Virus record (IMG/VR): IMGVR_UViG_3300033143_001932
Direction: 5' to 3' (one strand)
Length of the DNA: 20,000 nt
DNA from: an uncultured virus (IMG/VR IMGVR_UViG_3300033143_001932)
Taxonomy: Duplodnaviria; Heunggongvirae; Uroviricota; Caudoviricetes; Crassvirales
Part shown: positions 3,138-17,378 of the stretch, piece after piece
Numbering within the stretch: the first letter of the stretch is position 1
Layout: every line of letters begins with the position of its first letter
Position numbers and translations under genes: made by a program
Notes under the pieces: model-generated
Told to the model about the DNA's origin: nothing
Seen by the model: only the letters and a program-made list of their open reading frames with translations
Database searches by the model: none

Positions 3138-3327
3138 CGTTATATTGTTTAATAAATTCTACTACTGATGGATATGTTACTTCAATATCTCCTACATATT
3201 CAAATTCTGGTTTTATAAACAGTATTCTATTTACCACAGGCATTAACCAATCCCAAGCGTAAAATTCTCCATCAACTATTTCTAATTGATATCCCATAAA
3301 TTCTGCTATTATTTCATTTTGCTCCAT
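3124..3327 (-). CDS. Short paralog of 2704..3137
   Basis: Shares IAEFMGY, WDWLMPVV and VVEFIKQYN. Identical DNA blocks at 2710-2738/3139-3167 and 3099-3121/3289-3311. Confidence 0.75.
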   Translation of the reverse strand: MEQNEIIAEFMGYQLEIVDGEFYAWDWLMPVVNRILFIKPEFEYVGDIEVTYPSVVEFIKQYNDGEQ

Positions 3328-3332
3328 AATTT

Positions 3333-3497
3333 CTATTTTTTATTTAGGTTATTAATTTCAGAATAAAAGTCGTATCCGTATGACTCTTGATGTTCATCAT
3401 CTTTGTTGAATCTATCGTATACTACTCCCTCTGTGTCGAATTTTATTTGTATATAGTCACCACTTGGTAAGTATATATATCTATATTCTCCGTCCAT
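3333..3497 (-). CDS. Hypothetical protein (54 aa, MDGEYRYIYLPSGDYIQIKFDTEGVVYDRF...)
   Basis: Translated by hand; fills the operon gap. Confidence 0.65.
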   Translation of the reverse strand: MDGEYRYIYLPSGDYIQIKFDTEGVVYDRFNKDDEHQESYGYDFYSEINNLNKK

Positions 3498-8785: not shown

Positions 8786-9048
8786 TTTGTAGTCCTTTCT
8801 ATTTTATTTAAATTATTATACACTACTATCAATCGATCTATGGTTACTTCATACTGCTTTATGTATAAGTCCCCTATCTCTTCATTAAGAGTCCCATTCT
8901 CAATGTCTTGCATTGCCCACTCTATATAATCTTGAAGGTCATTGATTGATTCGCTTACCTCAAACTTAGTCAACTCTAGCTTAGTTTGACCCATACATAC
9001 TGACATCATTCCGACCATCAGTATACTTAATGTAATTAGTTTTTTCAT
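8782..9048 (-). CDS. Exported hypothetical protein, paralog of 6858..7088
   Basis: Signal peptide MKKLITLSILMVGMMSVCMG-Q; motif QDIENGTLN...GDLY. Confidence 0.7.
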   Translation of the reverse strand: MKKLITLSILMVGMMSVCMGQTKLELTKFEVSESINDLQDYIEWAMQDIENGTLNEEIGDLYIKQYEVTIDRLIVVYNNLNKIERTTK

Positions 9049-9254
9049 CTTAGCATTGTTCCGTAACCTTTTCGTCTTGTCATTTTTGCTATTGTTTCAG
9101 CATCTTCTCTTGACAATATCTCTATACTGTTACCTGTTTTATGATTAATAACTGGTGAACAACCGTACTTTTGCACAGTTGAACACTTAACACATACTTT
9201 ATACCCCAAGTCTATCCGTCCTTGAGGTATTACTTGATTGCATTTACATTTCAT
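9045..9254 (-). CDS. C4 zinc-finger protein, TraR/DksA-like
   Basis: CxC...IP.GR...G...CV.C pattern. Confidence 0.6.
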   Translation of the reverse strand: MKCKCNQVIPQGRIDLGYKVCVKCSTVQKYGCSPVINHKTGNSIEILSREDAETIAKMTRRKGYGTMLR

Positions 9255-9265
9255 TTCTTCATAAT

Positions 9266-9445
9266 CTAATTTTGCTTGATTAGTCTTAGTTCTTCTTTTT
9301 CAACAAAATCAGCCACAGCTCCTACACTAAATGGTTGGTTTTTTTCGACTAAATCATCTATTGCTTGTCGGACTATACGCCCATGAGTTTTAAGCATTAT
9401 TTCATTGAAGTGATCTTCGTTAAGTTGTTTTTTATTTTTCGGCAT
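9266..9445 (-). CDS. Hypothetical protein (59 aa, MPKNKKQLNEDHFNEIML...)
   Basis: Translated by hand; leader AAATGTTATG. Confidence 0.6.
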   Translation of the reverse strand: MPKNKKQLNEDHFNEIMLKTHGRIVRQAIDDLVEKNQPFSVGAVADFVEKEELRLIKQN

Positions 9446-9599
9446 AACATTTTTTTAGCTCAATAAACCCATCTTTAAGGACGGTTAGTTCATTGAATAG
9501 TTCAACATAAAAAGGTTCTGATAGTCTAAAGGCTCGGTGGGCTACATAATCAATATGTTTAGCCCACGCCTTAAGGTTTTTGATTGGCTCTACTACCAT
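9432..9599 (-). CDS. Hypothetical protein (55 aa, MVVEPIKNLKAWAKHIDY...)
   Basis: Translated by hand; short overlaps with both neighbours. Confidence 0.55.
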   Translation of the reverse strand: MVVEPIKNLKAWAKHIDYVAHRAFRLSEPFYVELFNELTVLKDGFIELKKCYAEK

Positions 9600-9808
9600 C
9601 CTTTTGTTTCCTTTAATTTAGCTATTTTTTGATTAATCTTTTCGCTAGAGTTTAACACCTTTCTTTTATAGGCTGCTCTTTCTTTAGCTTTTAAAACTTT
9701 CCTAGCTTCGCCTACAGTTAAGCTTTTTGTGTTCATAATTTCTCTTAACTTGTCGTATTTTGCAATACCGTCCCAAACTTGTTTAGATATTCTTTCGTTT
9801 TGTGTCAT
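9593..9808 (-). CDS. Basic hypothetical protein
   Basis: Likely start is MTQNERIS at 9808, preceded by the shared AATAAATATGTTATG leader. An in-frame upstream start is possible. Confidence 0.6.
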   Translation of the reverse strand: MTQNERISKQVWDGIAKYDKLREIMNTKSLTVGEARKVLKAKERAAYKRKVLNSSEKINQKIAKLKETKGW

Positions 9809-9897
9809 AACATATTTATTTAAAAAACGGTTGCATTTGAAACGTAGCAACCTCCACGCCAATTTATTTATGTAAATGAATTCTTCTGTTCTAGTCA

Positions 9898-10143
9898 TTA
9901 TCCAAGGTTTTTGAATTCCCACTGGACCAGCTTCTCCATTCGTTTATTGTGTAATATTTTCTTTGCTTTATCGAAAGTACAGTCGTATATCTTTTGACAC
10001 ATCTTAATACTTTCTAAATATGAAGTCATATCTCCCTCACCTAAATCTTTACTTTGTTTTGTTGTTTCAGCTATCAGCTGTTGCTCTTCCTCGCAAACGA
10101 ACTGTCTAACAGTCGGTCTGCGTCTTTTGTTTGTGTTTGTCAT
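9898..10143 (-). CDS. Hypothetical protein
   Basis: 81-aa ORF. Confidence 0.7.
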   Translation of the reverse strand: MTNTNKRRRPTVRQFVCEEEQQLIAETTKQSKDLGEGDMTSYLESIKMCQKIYDCTFDKAKKILHNKRMEKLVQWEFKNLG

Positions 10144-10160
10144 AATATGTTTTTAATATT

Positions 10161-10562
10161 TTAATAGAACCAACCCTGATGATAACAATCTTCAGGTCTT
10201 TCGTTTACCCATTCAGATATTGGGTTTCTAACTACATTAGGCACAAGTCCTTCAGGCATTTGCTCAAGTATTTGGTCGTAGGTGTAGCTATTTTTGTTTA
10301 AAAATTCTTCGTGCTGGTAATACAGTTTACGCTTTTCTTCCGGTGTCTTAACGAGATCTATCTCGGACCAAATTCTTCTTGATTCTTTGAATGTTTTTCT
10401 AGTCATAAACCTACCATATCCGTCATAAACTCCTCCATAAGTGTTACCTAAATGGTCTATTATATATGCAGTTTTAGTGAATGGCTCGCTCGGTGTTCCT
10501 TCATAGTATTGATTCGTTACCGATTCGTTAGTGTCTTGTGTTATGTAGCTAAAAAATCCCAT
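10161..10562 (-). CDS. Conserved phage hypothetical protein
   Basis: MGFFS..TQDT.ES, YDGYG.F and C-terminal QGWFY motifs. Confidence 0.75.
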   Translation of the reverse strand: MGFFSYITQDTNESVTNQYYEGTPSEPFTKTAYIIDHLGNTYGGVYDGYGRFMTRKTFKESRRIWSEIDLVKTPEEKRKLYYQHEEFLNKNSYTYDQILEQMPEGLVPNVVRNPISEWVNERPEDCYHQGWFY

Positions 10563-10577
10563 TTTACTTTCCTCCTT

Positions 10578-10679
10578 TTAAAATTGGTTTGTAATATACA
10601 TTAAGAATATGTGTAGCATTACAGCTACTGTAGCACCGATCAGCGCCACTACTCCATCATTGTTTAATAACTCTTTCAT
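10578..10679 (-). CDS. Single-TM microprotein (33 aa, MKELLNNDGVVALIGATVAVMLHIFLMYITNQF)
   Basis: Translated by hand. Has the same 20-nt leader/start as 10161..10562. Confidence 0.65.
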   Translation of the reverse strand: MKELLNNDGVVALIGATVAVMLHIFLMYITNQF

Positions 10680-10696
10680 TTTACTTTCCTCCTTTT

Positions 10697-10891
10697 TTAA
10701 TTGATTAATCTCATTATTTCGTACACATCTGTAGTTGCATACTGTTTCTTTTTTAGTTCTATAAACCCTTCAGCTTTTAGAAGTTTTTGGTGGTATCTCT
10801 TTCTTTGTTCGATATTGAATATATTGTAGTATAACACTACTAATCTATTAGCTTCTTTAAGCTGGTCGAGTTCTGTTTTAAATTGTGCCAT
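10697..10891 (-). CDS. Hypothetical protein
   Basis: 64-aa ORF; leader AAGTAAAATG. Confidence 0.65.
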   Translation of the reverse strand: MAQFKTELDQLKEANRLVVLYYNIFNIEQRKRYHQKLLKAEGFIELKKKQYATTDVYEIMRLIN

Positions 10892-10892
10892 T

Positions 10893-10991
10893 TTACTTAT
10901 TTAATGATTTAATAAATTGTCTTAACTGATTCACTCTAACATTAGAGCTGTCATTAAGAGCTTCTTTGATTTGCTGTTGTATTTTGTCCAT
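10893..10991 (-). CDS. Microprotein (32 aa, MDKIQQQIKEALNDSSNVRVNQLRQFIKSLNK)
   Basis: Translated by hand. ATG lies 2 nt after the 3' end of the tRNA-like element; the stop lies 1 nt before the next start. Confidence 0.55.
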   Translation of the reverse strand: MDKIQQQIKEALNDSSNVRVNQLRQFIKSLNK

Positions 10992-10993
10992 AG

Positions 10994-11055
10994 TGGCAAT
11001 ACAGAGAATCGAACTCCGTTACCTATTATTTCAGTTTGTCAACCTGACTATTGCC
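10994..11055 (-). ncRNA. tRNA-like element (acceptor stem and T arm, no proper anticodon arm)
   Basis: GGCAATA/TATTGCC 7-bp acceptor stem plus discriminator A; T arm CGGAG-TTCGATT-CTCTG; only 30 nt between the acceptor 5' strand and the T arm. Confidence 0.7.
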
Positions 11056-11058
11056 AAT

Positions 11059-11093
11059 AAAAAAAGAGGGCAACTTTTATTGTTACCCTCTTT
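11059..11093 (-). terminator. Intrinsic terminator
   Basis: AAAGAGGGTAAC-AATAAAA-GTTGCCCTC followed by T7. One pair works only as G-U on the - strand. Confidence 0.8.
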
Positions 11094-11792
11094 AGTTTTA
11101 TCTCCTTATCCATCATTGTCATATATCCGACCTCAGTCTTAATTTTTGACTTAGATATAATTTAACTTTTGAACAGGATCTGCTCTCCTTATTTATAAAC
11201 ACAACCTAGCAGTTGATAGGAAGCTTAGTATTTCGGCAGTTTTTACCTGCTTTACCCACTTACCAAATATTTCAATTCAGTTGTCTTTAAACATAGGGTG
11301 CAACTTTACACAATGCGCCTCGCTTTACGTGTTTTCGCTATATATTTAACCAGCTCCTGATCGAAAAATCAGTCCATACCTTAGACCTCAGTTCTAGTTA
11401 AACTCTCTGCTTCTTTAGTCCATTTATGCGCACTACTCGAACGCTTTCGCACTCAAAACTTACCTAAATTGCATCTCTAGACATACATACCTGCCTAGAT
11501 GGTTTTTAAACTTTCAAAGGGTTAAATAAAACGTGCTGAATTGTTATTGAATTCGCCATTTAAACAACTATAAGAACGCTTATAAATGCTGCTAAATGCT
11601 TTACGGTAGAGGTTCTAACATTAAGACCTTAAGAACGCTTAAAATCTGTCAGATTTGCTACAATTAACCTTTGAATTAACGCCCAATTAAAAGGGCGTTA
11701 AACGCTTAATTAAAAAAGATATAAAGAACTATTTGCCGTCAACACTCAGTTAAAAAACTGTCAACCCTTCGGAAGTTGAAATGGTGTTTTAC
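11094..11792 (-). ncRNA. Candidate large structured non-coding RNA (~700 nt)
   Basis: No ORF of 60 aa or more in an otherwise gene-dense genome; more than 10 hairpins and long-range helices; G-U pairs favour the - strand. Confidence 0.6.
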
Positions 11793-11817
11793 AAAAAGGG
11801 GGCTATTTTGCCCCCTT
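11793..11817 (-). terminator. Intrinsic terminator after 11822..12253
   Basis: GGGGGC-AAAATA-GCCCCC followed by TTTTT. Confidence 0.75.
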
Positions 11818-11821
11818 ATAT

Positions 11822-12253
11822 TTATTTAGAATTCTTTGATAGTCTGCTCAATACGTTGCAAACTTGGTGAGTAGAAAAATACTCTTTTTTAACATCTGTA
11901 ATAGTGTACTTATTACCCTCTTTTACGCTTTTAAACCTTTCGTATCTAGTCAAATTAGATAAGAAAGACTTAACCGTTAACGCTGAGATATTTAACTTTG
12001 ATTTGTTGCTCTTATTCAGGTAATCAATAAACGCTTGCGTTTGCTCTAATCCCTCACCTTTACAGAATTTAACTATCCCGTTTGCGCTCCTAGTAGTTTC
12101 TAGGTATTTGCTTTTTACAATTCTTCTCAATTGTACGTTTTCGTTGATTTTAGGTGTTTTTTTAGTTGACTTTGCACCTGATAAACTAACTTCTTCTGTT
12201 GTTGTTCTTTTACTATTCTTCGAAGAAACAACGCTTTTTATTTGTGTTTTCAT
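11822..12253 (-). CDS. Basic (Lys/Ser-rich) hypothetical protein, first gene of the - strand arm
   Basis: 143-aa ORF with its own promoter and terminator. Confidence 0.8.
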   Translation of the reverse strand: MKTQIKSVVSSKNSKRTTTEEVSLSGAKSTKKTPKINENVQLRRIVKSKYLETTRSANGIVKFCKGEGLEQTQAFIDYLNKSNKSKLNISALTVKSFLSNLTRYERFKSVKEGNKYTITDVKKEYFSTHQVCNVLSRLSKNSK

Positions 12254-12257
12254 ATTG

Positions 12258-12289
12258 CAATAATACGTTATAAATATTTAATAAACAAA
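12258..12289 (-). promoter_or_regulatory. Bacteroidota sigma-type promoter (-33 TTTG / -7 TATTATTG)
   Basis: TTTG-N20-TATTATTG, one mismatch to TAnnTTTG. It ends 4 nt before the ATG, so the mRNA may be leaderless. Confidence 0.55.
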
Positions 12290-12367
12290 TTATTTACAAG
12301 TTTTTTTTATTTTATTTACATTTTACTGAGGTAATTAAGGGGACAACAAAGAGTTAATAAGACAATA

Positions 12368-12710
12368 GAAAGGTTTTAAGAGGGTTTAAAAGGGTTGAAA
12401 TGTTAAGGGGTTTAAAGAGGGGTTAAGGGTGTTATCCCTTTGCTTAAAGGGTGCAAGGGTTAAGAGTTTAATGAAGGGTAAAGGGGGACGGGGTACGGGT
12501 ACGGGGTTGAGTATTGCAGTAATGAGGGGGGGGAGTTAGTGTGATCACGCGCGCGCGTGTCCACGCGTTAGCGCGCAAGCGCGCGAGTGCGTGCGAGGTG
12601 TGCGAAAACGTGAAAAAGTTCGGGCGAAATTTTTTAAAAAAAGAACCCCCCTTGTTTTTTAAATCGTTTTTCTGGTGGGGTCGAGTCGTCAGCGCGTGGG
12701 GGTCATCCCC
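12368..12710. repeat. G-skewed AAGGG(T/G)TT-like repeats, G-tracts and CG-alternating tract at the divergence point
   Basis: About 10 degenerate AGGG(G)TT/AAGGGT units at 12370-12490; G5-G4-G3-G4 at 12483-12506; palindrome CACGCGCGCGCGTG at 12546-12559. Confidence 0.75.
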
Positions 12711-12740
12711 TGGTTATATGTATGTGATAAAATTTTTTGC

Positions 12741-12748
12741 TATCTTTG
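12741..12748 (+). promoter_or_regulatory. -7 promoter box TATCTTTG
   Basis: Matches TAnnTTTG; 16 nt before ATG 12765. Confidence 0.65.
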
Positions 12749-12764
12749 TTATAAACTATACAAC

Positions 12765-12977
12765 ATGAAAAAGATTAGACGAAAAAAGAATTTAAGCTAC
12801 GATCACGATTATACTATAAAGAAAGGTAGACTTATTAATAATGCTCCAGAAACAACAACAGGACTTTGGAAGGAAGCACAAAGAAGAAAGGCTATGAAAA
12901 GAGCTGACAAGGTTAGGATGATAGCTGAAGCAAACGAACTAGCTAACATGAATATAGACCTATTTAAAAAAATATAA
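12765..12977 (+). CDS. Basic hypothetical protein (70 aa, MKKIRRKK...)
   Basis: Start reassigned to the ATG downstream of the promoter; followed by a terminator. Confidence 0.7.
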   Translation: MKKIRRKKNLSYDHDYTIKKGRLINNAPETTTGLWKEAQRRKAMKRADKVRMIAEANELANMNIDLFKKI

Positions 12978-13009
12978 CGATTTCTTTTCTCCATAGTTCG
13001 TCTAAAATC

Positions 13010-13041
13010 GGGAACGTTTTCACTCAGCGTTCCCTTTTTTT
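13010..13041 (+). terminator. Intrinsic terminator
   Basis: GGGAACG...CGTTCCC followed by T7. Confidence 0.8.
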
Positions 13042-13218
13042 ATGTTATAAATCTAAGTTTTATGTTGGTTTTATGTTATAAATTCAAAGCTAACTTGTTG
13101 TAAACCAATAGTATATGTTACCATGTTACTTTCTACTCACACCCGTTAAGTATAAAAAAATAAAAAGTATAAAAAAAAATAAAAGTGATATAGGTACGGA
13201 AAACCAACATTCCAACAT
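13038..13218. repeat. Cluster of ATGTT-core direct and inverted repeats with an A-rich spacer
   Basis: TTTTATGTTATAAAT x2 (13038, 13069), TTTTATGTTGG (13058), ATGTTAC x2 (13115, 13123), inverted CCAACAT x2 (13204, 13212). Confidence 0.65.
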
Positions 13219-13241
13219 TTTGCTACTCTTCATATTTTGCG

Positions 13242-13249
13242 TAGATTTG
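13242..13249 (+). promoter_or_regulatory. -7 promoter box TAGATTTG for groEL
   Basis: Matches TAnnTTTG; 28 nt before ATG 13278. Confidence 0.6.
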
Positions 13250-13277
13250 TATTAACAATAAACTACAATACAATACA

Positions 13278-14849
13278 ATGATAGTAAAAGATATTAGCTT
13301 TGGCGATGAAGCTAGAGGTGCCTTAATCGCAGGCATAAACAAAATCGCTAATGCTGTAAAAAGCACACTAGGTGCGCGAGGTCGCACAGTCTTAATTGAA
13401 TCAACTGAGCACATAGGCGGTATAACGGTAACAAAGGATGGAGTAACTGTTGCTAACAGCATCAACCTTATGGACCCGACTGAAAATTTAGCTGTAGTAA
13501 TGATGCGTCAAGCTGCATCCAAGACAGCTAGTGAAGCTGGTGACGGAACGACTACAGCTATAGTGTTAGCTCAAGCATTGATCCATGAAGCTCAAACACG
13601 TATAAAGCCGGAGATGAACTTGACTCAGATTATGAGAGCTATTCAATCTAGTTCGGATTACATACTAAAGCTATTAACTGACATGTCGGACCAGGTGAAT
13701 GAGGATAGGCTGCTAGATGTCGCCTCTATTTCAGCTAATAATGATTCGGAGATTGGGGAAATAATATACAACGCTTACAATAATGTAGGTAAGCATGGAG
13801 TGGTGACGGTAGAGAATGCGCAAGGGTCTGAGACTTATTGCACAGTTAGTGAAGGTATGCGTATAGCCCGTGGGTATTTGTCTAGGTATTTTATAACTAA
13901 CAAGAAAACCAGTGAATGCGTTTTGGAGAAACCATACATCTTAGTTCTTGATCAAGAGGTTGAGCAGTTCGGGAATATTGAACAGGTCCTGGCTGATGTG
14001 TACAAAGAAGGGCGTTCCATACTAATCATTTCTAACTTAAGTCCAAACATTATAAACACACTAAACCTCAACCGAGCTAGAAATGGTTTAAAGGTTTGTG
14101 CTATTCAACCACCGCAGTTTGGTTGGAAGTCAAACGAGCTGATGGAGGATATAGCGATAGCAACTGGCGCAACATATTTTAGTGAGTCGACTGGCGACAA
14201 TCTACAATCAGTCTCCATAGCCGATCTTGGTTTCTGTGATAAAGTAATCGTAGACCAAACACATACCATACTAGTGCGAAACGAGGACAATGACCAAGTG
14301 GTTAATGACCGAGTGTCCGTCCTGTGGGAAGAGCATGATAACCATAAAAATAAAGACACTCAAGAATTTATTCGCGAGCGCATAGCTGTACTGTCAGGAC
14401 GAATCGGAGTAATCCACGTAGGAGCCAATTCAGACATAGAGCAAAAAGAAAAGCGCGATAGGGTGGATGATGCTGTCTGCGCGACTCGCGCAGCACTGGA
14501 GGACGGAATTCTCTCCGGAGGTGGTGTCGCACTTAGGGACATCTCCACAAAGGTTGGCTCTCAAAAAGGATCATGTGAAGAAGATCAGGTCGCTTACGCA
14601 ATTTTAGAAAAAGCACTGCGTGCTCCTTATAATCAAATATTAGCCAATGCGGGTCTGGACTATCCAGCACCCTCTGGACAAAGAAAGGGCTACGGCATAA
14701 ATGTCAAGACTATGAAAAGTGGGAACATGCGTAAGCTAGGCATCATTGACCCAACTAAAGTAACAAAGAGTGCTATAGTAAATGCGATATCTGTAGCTAC
14801 AACTATCCTATCAACTAATGCTATAATAACAAACATAAGACAACAATGA
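13278..14849 (+). CDS. groEL: Phage chaperonin GroEL (Cpn60)
   Basis: Motifs AVKSTLG, VTKDGVTVA, AGDGTTTA, ISANND, KEKRDRVDDA and GIIDPTKV; no C-terminal GGM tail. Confidence 0.97.
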   Translation: MIVKDISFGDEARGALIAGINKIANAVKSTLGARGRTVLIESTEHIGGITVTKDGVTVANSINLMDPTENLAVVMMRQAASKTASEAGDGTTTAIVLAQALIHEAQTRIKPEMNLTQIMRAIQSSSDYILKLLTDMSDQVNEDRLLDVASISANNDSEIGEIIYNAYNNVGKHGVVTVENAQGSETYCTVSEGMRIARGYLSRYFITNKKTSECVLEKPYILVLDQEVEQFGNIEQVLADVYKEGRSILIISNLSPNIINTLNLNRARNGLKVCAIQPPQFGWKSNELMEDIAIATGATYFSESTGDNLQSVSIADLGFCDKVIVDQTHTILVRNEDNDQVVNDRVSVLWEEHDNHKNKDTQEFIRERIAVLSGRIGVIHVGANSDIEQKEKRDRVDDAVCATRAALEDGILSGGGVALRDISTKVGSQKGSCEEDQVAYAILEKALRAPYNQILANAGLDYPAPSGQRKGYGINVKTMKSGNMRKLGIIDPTKVTKSAIVNAISVATTILSTNAIITNIRQQ

Positions 14850-15137: not shown

Positions 15138-15434
15138 ATGGCAAAAACTTCTAAAGCAAGCATGCCTTGCAACAAACCAAGGAGATCTAATCGTCCAGGA
15201 AAAAAAATGATGGTTAAAGGCTGTGAAGGTGGAAAGGAAAAACTTCTACACTTTGGAGCTAAAGGTTATGGTCATAATTATTCTCCAGCAGCTCGTAGGT
15301 CATTCAGAGCTAGACACAAATGTGCTACAGCTACAAGTAAATTAACGGCTAGATATTGGGCGTGTAAAAAACTGTGGGCTGGAAAAGGGGGCTCCACTAA
15401 AAGCTCTCCAAAAAATAAACAAGGAAAATATTAA
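15138..15434 (+). CDS. Conserved basic phage protein (HFG..GY / FRARH.C / ARYWAC family)
   Basis: 98 aa, K/R-rich, with motifs recurrent in aquatic phages. Confidence 0.8.
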   Translation: MAKTSKASMPCNKPRRSNRPGKKMMVKGCEGGKEKLLHFGAKGYGHNYSPAARRSFRARHKCATATSKLTARYWACKKLWAGKGGSTKSSPKNKQGKY

Positions 15435-15438
15435 CACA

Positions 15439-15624
15439 ATGAATTATAGAACATCACTTCCATTACATGAGACAGAGTTTCTTGATGAGTGGCCCAAAAA
15501 GAAAAGAAAAAATAAATCAAAAGGGAACAATAGGTCTATTAAGGATAAAAGAAGAGCTCATAAGAAGCAGCTAAAAAAGTGTGGTAAAAAAACCTTGGGA
15601 AGCTGTAAGGTTGTAAAAAGATAA
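15439..15624 (+). CDS. Basic small protein with MNYRTSLPLHETEF tag
   Basis: 61 aa; shared N-terminal motif. Confidence 0.75.
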   Translation: MNYRTSLPLHETEFLDEWPKKKRKNKSKGNNRSIKDKRRAHKKQLKKCGKKTLGSCKVVKR

Positions 15625-15668
15625 GATATAGCTAAGAAAAGAAAAGTAACTAGAAAAAAAAGTAAGAC

Positions 15669-15869
15669 ATGAGTAAGATGACTAACAGAAAACGCAAATG
15701 CCCTAAAGGAGAAAGGTTTAATAAGGGTAAAAACAAATGTGTAGAAACACTTATTAGTAAAGCTGGCATAGACAGCCCAGGGGCTGTAGCTGGTTTAATT
15801 GGTGTTTTAGGTGGAGGATTAGGAGCTTACGCTAAAGTAAAGTCGGATATTAAAAAGCAAGGACGATGA
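15669..15869 (+). CDS. Small basic protein with a Gly-rich hydrophobic helix
   Basis: 66 aa; CPKG.RFN....KC motif followed by a GxxxG-rich segment. Confidence 0.7.
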   Translation: MSKMTNRKRKCPKGERFNKGKNKCVETLISKAGIDSPGAVAGLIGVLGGGLGAYAKVKSDIKKQGR

Positions 15870-16033
15870 ATTATAGAACATCGCTCCCGTTACACCCAAC
15901 CGAATTTCCTGAAGTGTCTAAAAAAGATAGACGAAAGGTTAAAAGATATTCCCGCAAAGCGGTAAAAGGTAAGTCCACAAAGAAAAGTAGACGAGAGACT
16001 AGTAAGTTATATTATAAAATAGTAGGATTGTAA
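15866..16033 (+). CDS. Basic small protein with MNYRTSLPLHPTEF tag (55 aa; absent from the ORF track)
   Basis: Hand translation: MNYRTSLPLHPTEFPEVSKKDRRKVKRYSRKAVKGKSTKKSRRETSKLYYKIVGL. ATGA overlap with the upstream gene. Confidence 0.8.
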   Translation: MNYRTSLPLHPTEFPEVSKKDRRKVKRYSRKAVKGKSTKKSRRETSKLYYKIVGL

Positions 16034-16063
16034 AGAATCTTAAGAAACAAACAAGAAATAATT

Positions 16064-16480
16064 ATGTCATATAGAACCTCATTACCATTGCACCCAACTG
16101 AATTTGGAAAACCTTTAGTAACTAAGAAAAGGAAAAAACACGCCAGATCTATTCGCCCTACATCTAGAAAAAATCCAGATGGAAGTAGAAGTTCACATAT
16201 AATGGAGTCTGGTGAGTCTGACGGCAAGTACAAATATCAAGTAAACCCAACCCTATTAAAAGAAGGCACAGCAGGGTGGAGAGAAGCACAGAAACGAGGA
16301 GAGGTATATGGATTTAAGAGTAAGAAAAGAGCTGAAAAGTTTGCTTATGGCAGTTGGAAAAAGGGAAAAGATAAAAGAACCGGCATGAAGCACTATCGTT
16401 GTGAGAAAAAAGGATATACCTGGAACAACAATACCAATACTTGTGAGAAAAAGAAAACAGGTAAAAAAAGAAACAAATAA
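16064..16480 (+). CDS. Basic protein with MSYRTSLPLHPTEF tag
   Basis: 138 aa; shared N-terminal motif. Confidence 0.8.
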   Translation: MSYRTSLPLHPTEFGKPLVTKKRKKHARSIRPTSRKNPDGSRSSHIMESGESDGKYKYQVNPTLLKEGTAGWREAQKRGEVYGFKSKKRAEKFAYGSWKKGKDKRTGMKHYRCEKKGYTWNNNTNTCEKKKTGKKRNK

Positions 16481-16509
16481 AATAACTATCTTTACAAAAA
16501 AACAAAATT

Positions 16510-16746
16510 ATGAAACAAGGATATAACTCAAGACTAGATGAATCTTTAGGTGCAAAGCACGGAAAGAAGTCACAAAGCTATGCGTCAAGAAGACATGAAA
16601 GCGAAGCTATGGAAAAAAAATATCATGGTCACAAGTATGGATCAGATGCAGATATGTCTTATAGAGACAATTTTAAAGACAAGTGTGCGCACGTTGTAAA
16701 AGGTGGACACGTTGCTAAAGCACTAGAGCATCAATTTAGAAAATAA
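16510..16746 (+). CDS. Conserved basic phage protein (KQGYN.RLDESLG)
   Basis: 78 aa; variant promoter box TATCTTTA at 16487-16494. Confidence 0.75.
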   Translation: MKQGYNSRLDESLGAKHGKKSQSYASRRHESEAMEKKYHGHKYGSDADMSYRDNFKDKCAHVVKGGHVAKALEHQFRK

Positions 16747-16749
16747 GAC

Positions 16750-17010
16750 ATGGCTAGTAAGTTAGAAAAAATGAGGGAAAAGCCCGGAGGTTCTAACGCT
16801 GGTAAATACAAAAACGTTTCTAAAGGAGACTTTTGTGGACCATCAGGAGGAGCACCTCAAGGTAGTTACCCGGTAAACACAAGGGAGAGAGCTGAATCAG
16901 CTCTTAAGCTTGCTCACAATGCACCTAATCCAGAAGGGATTAAGTCTTGTGTGTATAGGAAATACCCAGGTCTTAAGAAAAAAAGCTTAATGCATAATCG
17001 TAAGAAGTAA
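16750..17010 (+). CDS. Conserved phage protein (YPVNT..RA..AL motif, possibly DUF6582-like)
   Basis: 86 aa; FCGP.GG...GSYPV and VYRKYP motifs. Confidence 0.75.
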   Translation: MASKLEKMREKPGGSNAGKYKNVSKGDFCGPSGGAPQGSYPVNTRERAESALKLAHNAPNPEGIKSCVYRKYPGLKKKSLMHNRKK

Positions 17011-17378
17011 TGTCTAAACTAGGTGGAGGTAAGCACGAGCGTCAATTAAAGAGAGAGGAGCGTAGGCGTAGGCGTCAGTGGCAAAAAAGATCTTCAGCAA
17101 AAGGTGTAGAAAAACCTAATTGCACTACTCTTTCTTGTCGAAACCCAGGGACTAAGAGTAAAGCTCAAAGACAAAGGGAGAGAGAGGCTCGTAAAGATGA
17201 GCGTCAAGACAACAGAGCTAAAAACAAGCAATTAAGAAAAGATAAAAGAGAGCTAAAAAAAGACATTAGAAAAGAAAAGAGAGCGGTGAGAAAGAGTTCT
17301 AAAACGAAACCCATCCCATCTTTAATTGCTGGTCCTCCAAAATCTAAAGAAAAATCTAAAAACCCTAGGTTTATGTAG
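17010..17378 (+). CDS. Very basic coiled-coil protein
   Basis: 122 aa, R/K-rich; start overlaps the upstream stop (TAATG). Confidence 0.7.
   Translation: MSKLGGGKHERQLKREERRRRRQWQKRSSAKGVEKPNCTTLSCRNPGTKSKAQRQREREARKDERQDNRAKNKQLRKDKRELKKDIRKEKRAVRKSSKTKPIPSLIAGPPKSKEKSKNPRFM

Follow-up and report, generated by a model that had tools for sequence, protein, structure and literature searches.

The stretch of phage DNA analysed here (the window, 20,000 nt) carries, behind the first gene of its early operon, a real non-coding locus that is neither ROOL nor GOLLD and is, as far as the literature and Rfam searches reach, a variation on the theme of large phage RNAs that has not been described before. 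Sequence comparison suggests that related phages fill a common slot at this place with different RNA-like sequences. The slot is fixed, comes first in the early operon, and combines recognisable production signals with a variable cargo, so that RNAs of this kind can be found by position and not by sequence. The single ornate RNA that a sequence-only reading had proposed for the window is unproven.

The window is organised in two divergent arms. Small genes on the minus strand extend up to 12253, and the plus arm opens with GroEL followed by GroES. The site that heads the minus arm was read with TAnnTTTG, which we take to be the Bacteroidota promoter consensus. In a scan for this one promoter type, no other site was found near the head of the early arm, inside the RNA stretch or before the next early genes. 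Together with the boxA motif described below, the promoter motif points to a Bacteroidota host. Marine, sediment and vent samples are the source of the DNA sequencing runs in which 20-40% of the sampled window words occur, and there is no RNA run among the listed runs with window words. A related record of 50.6 kb (G001) is 99.4% identical to the window over 9000-14800. A control region between the arms (12360-12700) has repeats rich in purines, a tract of alternating C and G and a switch in GC skew, and is possibly an origin or packaging site. A 30-nt direct repeat (10560-10589 and 10677-10706, 90%) spans the ribosome-binding region of one early gene and, in its other copy, that of the adjoining one, and both copies are matched by X1 and X2 contigs. 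After groES, a series of very small, strongly Lys/Arg-rich ORFs without family assignment occupies 15138-17378.

Table 1. Features at the head of the minus-strand early arm, in the order of transcription (window coordinates).
Feature	Position	Strand	Remarks
Promoter-like site, Bacteroidota type (TTG ... TAnnATTG)	12258..12288	-	one mismatch to consensus TAnnTTTG
First early gene, 143-aa basic protein	11822..12253	-	pI 10.1; 30 K+R, 11 D+E
T1, G+C terminator-like hairpin	11796..11817	.	called on + only; - U tract short, imperfect
Long-range helix closing the 5' domain, 5' strand	11761..11781	-	pairs with 11505-11525; indels in run X9
boxA-like element	11715..11730	-	13/16 to Bacteroidota rRNA-spacer motif; first 8 nt perfect; mostly unpaired in predicted fold
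9-bp hairpin directly 3' of boxA	11676..11701	-	pair probability 0.98
Two long hairpins, 11614-11653 and 11564-11589	11564..11653	-	common apical stem-loop: 15-nt repeat (family D19), 93% identity
Long-range helix, 3' strand	11505..11525	-	alternative partner 11664-11675
RNA body, 3' part	11095..11504	-	hairpins 11472-11501, 11436-11457 (GAAA loop); stems 11344-11403, 11197-11288; moderate folding
T2, intrinsic terminator	11059..11093	-	12-bp stem and U tract
tRNA-like element, 65 nt	10991..11055	-	7-bp acceptor stem, canonical T arm, single middle hairpin, 3' ACUA

The stretch 11143-11821 (679 nt) is the longest gap in the window without an ORF of at least 45 aa on either strand, in agreement with the earlier description of it as the only long ORF-free stretch of the minus arm. 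Only two other such gaps reach 150 nt (261 and 277 nt), and the short ORFs within the stretch do not exceed 27 aa. It had also been described as bracketed by two terminators. The downstream one, T2, is indeed called on the minus strand (11093-11063), whereas the upstream hairpin T1 is called on the plus strand only. T1 is probably leaky on the minus strand because the U tract following its hairpin is short and imperfect. A search with all 4227 Rfam families gave no match at E 1 over the window or at E 10 over the region, in line with the sequence-only reading, which could not assign the RNA to a known class by eye, and neither the twister model nor other Rfam models found a self-cleaving ribozyme in the window. 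Further long ORF-free gaps, with no Rfam hit at gathering score, are present in G001 and G003 (L202:13291-13951, L202:16820-17688 and L205:15847-17475).

All of the hairpins and stems listed in the sequence-only reading are present as complementary sequence, but two of the long-range stems do not prevail in the predicted ensemble. The stem 11664-11675/11513-11525 (-9.2 kcal/mol) loses to the outer helix 11761-11781/11505-11525 (-18.1), with 0.7 against 14.6 expected pairs, and the stem 11428-11435/11311-11318 has only 2.4 expected pairs out of 8. The inner stem may still be the conserved one despite the ensemble, because the two partners compete and the outer partner has indels in run X9. Little weight can be given to the argument that G-U pairs working only on the minus strand indicate selection at the RNA level: G-U pairs make up 21 of the 165 probable pairs, but the energy gap between the strands is mostly present in shuffles too (-162.8 for the minus and -128.7 for the plus strand). 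The minus strand is G-rich throughout the arm.

Compared with shuffled sequences, the minus strand folds better, as had been anticipated, but only moderately so (z -2.33, 1 of 20 shuffles as good; plus strand z -1.24, 3 of 20). With the terminator removed, the RNA stretch has a z of -2.2 (0 of 25 shuffles as good). The 5' domain (11505-11781), whose bounds were picked after the helix had been seen, reaches -5.9 (plus strand -4.1), and the 3' part of about 400 nt (405 nt folded) reaches -1.7 (3 of 60 shuffles as good) against +0.7 on the plus strand. The ROOL of L035, used as a control, has a z of -4.9, which is stronger than that of the whole window stretch. When folding was scanned in 150-nt pieces, only the terminator windows and 11550-11699 fell below about -2.9, and a coding window (10050-10199) reached -3.6. 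The best long-range duplex in the stretch is equalled by 2 of 40 shuffles.

Close strains differ less in the RNA than in the neighbouring gene. Between G001 and the window, 3 of 734 RNA positions differ, against 22 of 432 positions of the basic gene (16 synonymous and 5 non-synonymous codons). The X2 contigs, which like those of X9 may stem from different strains, have 7 substitutions in 656 RNA positions and 23 in 304 of the gene. The X9 run has 20 substitutions and 53 gap letters over 10891-11585, against 72 and 10 over 11704-12214; several of its indels fall in 11738-11786, and an 18-nt deletion lies at 11264. Substitutions are also few in the 3' part of the body in independent samples. The lower substitution in the RNA fits both purifying selection and an exchanged gene allele. 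The contrast may reflect a swapped basic-gene allele, because G001 is identical to the window in GroEL and most other kilobases. Of the 34 G001 differences over 5.8 kb, 22 lie in the basic gene and are largely common to an X2 contig, which gives this gene the look of an exchanged allele.

Nine substitutions within the RNA body (X2, X3 and G001; the X-run ones among the 40 listed of 114 rows, the three of G001 placed by hand on the predicted helices) could be compared with the fold. Two keep the predicted pair, one is unpaired and six fall on pairs they would break, mostly at helix ends or in pairs of low probability. One of these six, at 11389, leaves the hairpin 11357-11372 of the sequence-only reading intact, and the predicted fold may therefore be in error at this point.

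This pattern, which does not favour pair-keeping changes, together with an overall z of only about -2 and a best duplex matched by shuffles, agrees with a sequence that is for the most part a neutral spacer or has decayed, and where nothing but the terminators, the boxA and the tRNA-like tail matters. We consider such a spacer very unlikely in view of the strong folding of the 5' domain, the low X2 and X9 substitution counts, the covariation in the sister clade described below, and a slot kept at 600-800 nt in several lineages whose early arms are otherwise gene-dense.

Searches for the RNA body gave no diverged relative. No homolog was found by blastn in 50,697 phage records, or in IMG/VR with an exact 27-nt pattern and a repeat-spacing pattern, the 26 spacing hits being unrelated repeats. 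A Flavobacteriaceae MAG pointed to an order with 401 genomes, and in these the body had only chance matches of 20-52 nt; the best of those overlapping the boxA was considered as a possible rRNA locus and rejected, as it is not at one. The phage, IMG/VR and Flavobacteriaceae-order searches likewise gave no isolated fragment of the body. The literature, judged from listings and abstract openings, yielded no description of the locus. A motif search in six supplementary files of PMC10690425 gave no hit (files 1, 2 and 4 may hold such RNAs), and the accessible part of 10.64898/2026.09.22.753630 has no relevance to the locus.

The slot itself could be traced through the basic protein. The family of this protein comprises 4 close and 10 distant relatives; the latter were obtained with a profile, and their alignment led to five loci (L044-L048), which represent three lineages because L045/L046 and L047/L048 are near duplicates. 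In all five, the roughly 600-750 nt behind the basic gene contain no credible ORF. A boxA-like match lies 136-171 nt into the slot in all three that were scored (L044, L045 and L047), and the slots of L044 and L047/L048 close with a T-arm minihelix. The five slots have a common core (68-83% identity) of about 130-250 nt. It covaries in the sister clade: 4 of 27 pairs are changed on both sides, and 1 of 500 shuffles is as high, for three sequences and a structure derived from them. This core is better supported as an RNA than the window's own body. The covarying part, of about 130 nt and outside Rfam, lies at L044:3650-3782, L045:3668-3799 and L047:676-839, and a pattern search with the core returned the same five records and no others. 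The ORF-free slot with boxA in basic-gene relatives and the covarying core in one clade uphold the proposal of a non-coding RNA locus outside Rfam.

The bodies of the related slots and of the window are not detectably homologous by sequence. In blastn, the window matched these slots only through its tail, and homology to the sister-clade core was not supported, there being no hit at the expected place with the covariance models R1 and R2 or with nhmmer, all built from three sequences. By eye, a colinear chain of motifs at 11510-11340 resembles the core. Both strands of one helix seem to have changed in it, but another helix is lost, and the resemblance is not significant, as 12 of 100 shuffles reach its alignment score. 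With a profile of the 5' half of the core, the slot of L053 ranked first in 108 kb (E 0.094), a hint that the core family may be wider. Between the bodies of the window and L053, the local score of 112 exceeds that of 100 of 100 shuffles (maximum 108); at low identity and as one of 28 pairs tested, the similarity is a hint only. The idea of one ornate RNA class is thus not borne out: diverged homologs were not found, the 3' 400 nt fold modestly, and the bodies differ between clades.

L053 was located through the tRNA-like tail, which it shares with the window at 64 of 65 nt. It has a basic first gene, a terminator, a twister-like ribozyme, two boxA, about 800 ORF-free nt, a terminator and the tail. 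Its slot folds with a z of -2.35 (inner body -1.2), and hhalign detected no homology between its first-gene protein and that of the window. The ribozyme, placed directly after the terminator of the first early gene at the 5' end of the slot (L053:1735-1786), is Twister-P1-like with 46 bits and E 2e-7, below the gathering score of 67.2, and it suggests release of the RNA from the mRNA. L051 has a similar ORF-free gap with boxA behind another first gene. In L040, the basic gene and the tail are present, with ORFs between them and no boxA. The GroEL-anchored loci L001-L007 have nothing in common with the region; in the part compared, a slot and a boxA are both absent from L002, L003, L004 and L006, and the basic gene is absent from the records behind three of these four (two of them complete). 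The module of basic protein, large RNA and tRNA-like element that had been proposed is consequently a loose one: the basic gene comes with the ORF-free slot in five of five loci, whereas the slots of L053 and L051 lie behind other first genes.

The tRNA-like element is missed by ARAGORN, which called no tRNA in the window. Its best Rfam scores, both below gathering, are 22 bits (E 0.099) for mascRNA-menRNA and 19 bits (E 0.53) for tRNA. A canonical tRNA was rejected, as the score is 19 bits against 29, the middle hairpin replaces the D and anticodon arms, and ACUA replaces ACCA. When IMG/VR was scanned for similar tails without requiring ACUA, six of ten hits were ordinary tRNAs and the other four all ended in ACUA. 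Together with a metagenome scan, which did require ACUA, this gave eight distinct tails including that of the window. Their T stems vary; seven tails pair at five of five positions and one at four of five, where the search pattern itself had imposed the closing pair. The tail is a member of a wider phage family ending in CCACUA, a small separate family of tRNA mimics worth modelling; listings and abstract openings in the literature contain no phage tRNA mimic with this end. As most of the tails follow ORFs, the tail would be an independent mobile part. Its inclusion in the module stands for the window and L053, whose tails are the only two of the eight distinct ones to come immediately behind a long ORF-free stretch. 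At 10988, just past the tail, one X2 contig departs from the window sequence. Another phage (L038/L043/L057:2363-2563 and 3170-3451) has two consecutive tRNA-like elements, with a short tmRNA (~280 nt) nearby.

In another reading, the locus would not be one RNA but a row of smaller modules (the 5' domain of about 280 nt, the 3' domains and the tRNA mimic) that are excised from a common precursor and swapped among phages. The concentration of the folding signal in the 5' domain, the short length of the sister-clade core, the recurrence of boxA and tail with bodies that differ between clades, and the presence of the window's tail but not its body in L053 all agree with such a row. Nevertheless, it is improbable, since no internal promoter (of the one type scanned) or terminator separates modules between T1 and T2 and the searches named above found no body piece standing alone.

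The 16-nt motif matched at 11730-11715, which the sequence-only reading had overlooked, is presumably the boxA of Bacteroidota. A scan of GTDB genomes gave at least 121 exact copies, mostly in Bacteroidota; at 13 of 20 bacterial loci tested the motif is located just 5' of the 23S rRNA on the same strand, the remaining seven having no Rfam hit. The window copy agrees with this host-type rRNA-spacer boxA at 13 of 16 positions, the joint best score in the window and the sole one with the first 8 bases perfect. Matches of this quality occur by chance about once per 20 kb, and further ones are present in G001, in G003 and once more in the window, so the match is weak alone. It gains weight because related slots have boxA-like matches at the corresponding position: 15/17 in L044, 13/17 in L045, 14/17 in L047, 14/17 in L051, and 16/17 and 14/16 in L053. 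The best matches in the early arms of the slotless loci L002, L003, L004 and L006 are 11-12. The finding of boxA only where a long untranslated stretch exists fits the production of a non-coding RNA.

By combining these observations, it is possible to propose how the RNA may be made. Host polymerase would start at the promoter before the basic gene, and a fraction of it would read through the imperfect T1. As the arm has a single promoter-like site, at its head, and the scan detected no further site of this type within the RNA or before the next genes, the RNA must be a product of such read-through. The boxA-like site would then load the host rRNA-type Nus complex (NusB-S10, NusA/NusG). In the rrn system, boxA nucleates a complex that confers Rho resistance and chaperoned folding (accessible text of PMC8632103); by analogy, the complex would shield some 650 untranslated bases from Rho and aid their folding. 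Most transcription would end at T2, and the product would be a folded, stable RNA with a length of about 620-730 nt. RNA that extends past T2 may be cut by RNase P at the tRNA-like element, thus freeing the downstream early mRNA. The RNA would most likely act in trans when infection begins, as a decoy or scaffold that binds proteins; our guess for the first candidate partner is the basic protein. Related phages would keep the slot and its signals and carry other RNA bodies.

The locus would then be an exchangeable non-coding RNA cassette, expressed early with the help of host Nus antitermination and yielding a stable trans-acting RNA, a reading whose chances we judge to be about even. It agrees with an ORF-free slot outside Rfam that recurs in all five basic-gene loci (three lineages), L053 and L051, with boxA in the scored slots, the sister-clade covariation, the twister-like hit, the fewer RNA substitutions, and a precedent in phage phi14:2 (accessible part of 10.1101/2020.03.07.982082). 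Against it stand a window body without a diverged homolog, the modest folding of the 3' part and of the whole, which is well below the ROOL control, a window boxA that is the weakest form, the possible swapped gene allele, substitutions that are not pair-keeping, and the X9 indels.

The same signals might instead serve a leader acting in cis, in which the boxA and the folded RNA stay on the polymerase, the basic protein is N-like, and one promoter drives the arm through T2. Lambda early operons have the order promoter, small basic first gene, boxA, terminator. The window resembles them in this order (for nut and put, see the accessible part of PMC8632103), boxA accompanies the basic gene in the loci seen, and the single promoter-like site at the head of the arm, with none before the next early genes, suits the leader as well as it does the cassette. 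A leader is possible, although we do not think it probable. The put element has about 65 nt and, like nut, acts bound to polymerase (PMC8632103, same part), so 700 nt would be unneeded. Lambda N is extended (PMC8632103, same part), but the basic protein, the first 30 residues of which are disordered, is confidently predicted to have a folded, helical core (pLDDT 78.5). Furthermore, L053 and L051 have the slot and boxA behind other first genes, and the twister-like ribozyme of L053 suggests a freed RNA.

Binding of the cassette RNA by the basic protein is a guess from charge and position. The protein has no match in Pfam, PHROG or PDB, and the ESM Atlas gave no usable hit. A fold search found nothing at E 0.001, the best hits (Z 3.5, non-significant) being N-terminal fragments of sigma factors. 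When viral, metagenome and genome contigs and GenBank phages, collections that may lack the records nearest to the window, were scanned with the alignment of the close relatives, no locus was obtained. It is conceivable, if doubtful, that Bacteroidota phages first make a basic protein of new fold and a large RNA transcribed like rRNA, and that the two form an RNP that reprograms host transcription or disarms defence, the bodies being either swapped cassettes or one fast-evolving family. The RNA would in that case be boxA-loaded, released by a ribozyme or processing stalk, and have a tRNA mimic at its end; if there is one family, its core would still be faintly visible in the window as the motif chain at 11510-11340.

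ROOL and GOLLD are large phage RNAs of unknown function (accessible parts of PMC12286853 and PMC5737381). The window RNA is like them in being of similar size, phage-borne and beside a tRNA-like element, although the window and the G001 pieces contain no true tRNA and the window has this element only. It is not a ROOL (RF03087), as it has no covariance-model match, while the true ROOL of L035 scores 284 bits, and it is not a GOLLD, as none of the 4227 Rfam families gave a hit. An alignment of the window to the L035 ROOL is reached by 80 of 100 shuffles, the window folds more weakly, and its body is not conserved across the phage group. A cluster of tRNAs contains the genuine ROOL (L035:3233-3857), and L035 also has a twister-like hit at 1134-1209. 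A further comparison is with Cellulophaga phage phi14:2, a Bacteroidota phage in the early region of which two abundant and persistent intergenic RNAs are described in the accessible part of 10.1101/2020.03.07.982082. The two phages have in common a long non-coding intergenic stretch in the early region; the phi14:2 RNAs are expressed, whereas the window stretch is known from sequence alone and has no sequence match in the phage collection. The large RNAs GOLLD, ROOL and those of phi14:2 have no known function.

The tail of the window has an acceptor stem, a T arm and a reduced middle, like mascRNA/menRNA and the tRNA-like domain of tmRNA; it differs from them in lacking G3-U70, in ending with ACUA and in belonging to its own phage family with a covarying T stem. 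With lambda nut/N and HK022 put, the window shares an early operon, a boxA, a small basic first gene and downstream terminators. Its slot is ten times longer than put, the hairpin after its boxA is not recognisably a boxB, and its basic protein is unrelated to N by sequence and fold search. The boxA/Nus system of rrn operons differs in that the window copy is degenerate (13/16), stands in a phage early operon before an uncharacterized RNA, and binds Nus factors only putatively. The likeness consists in a motif that matches the Bacteroidota 16S-23S spacer boxA and heads, on the 5' side, a long stretch without translation, with a long enclosing helix.
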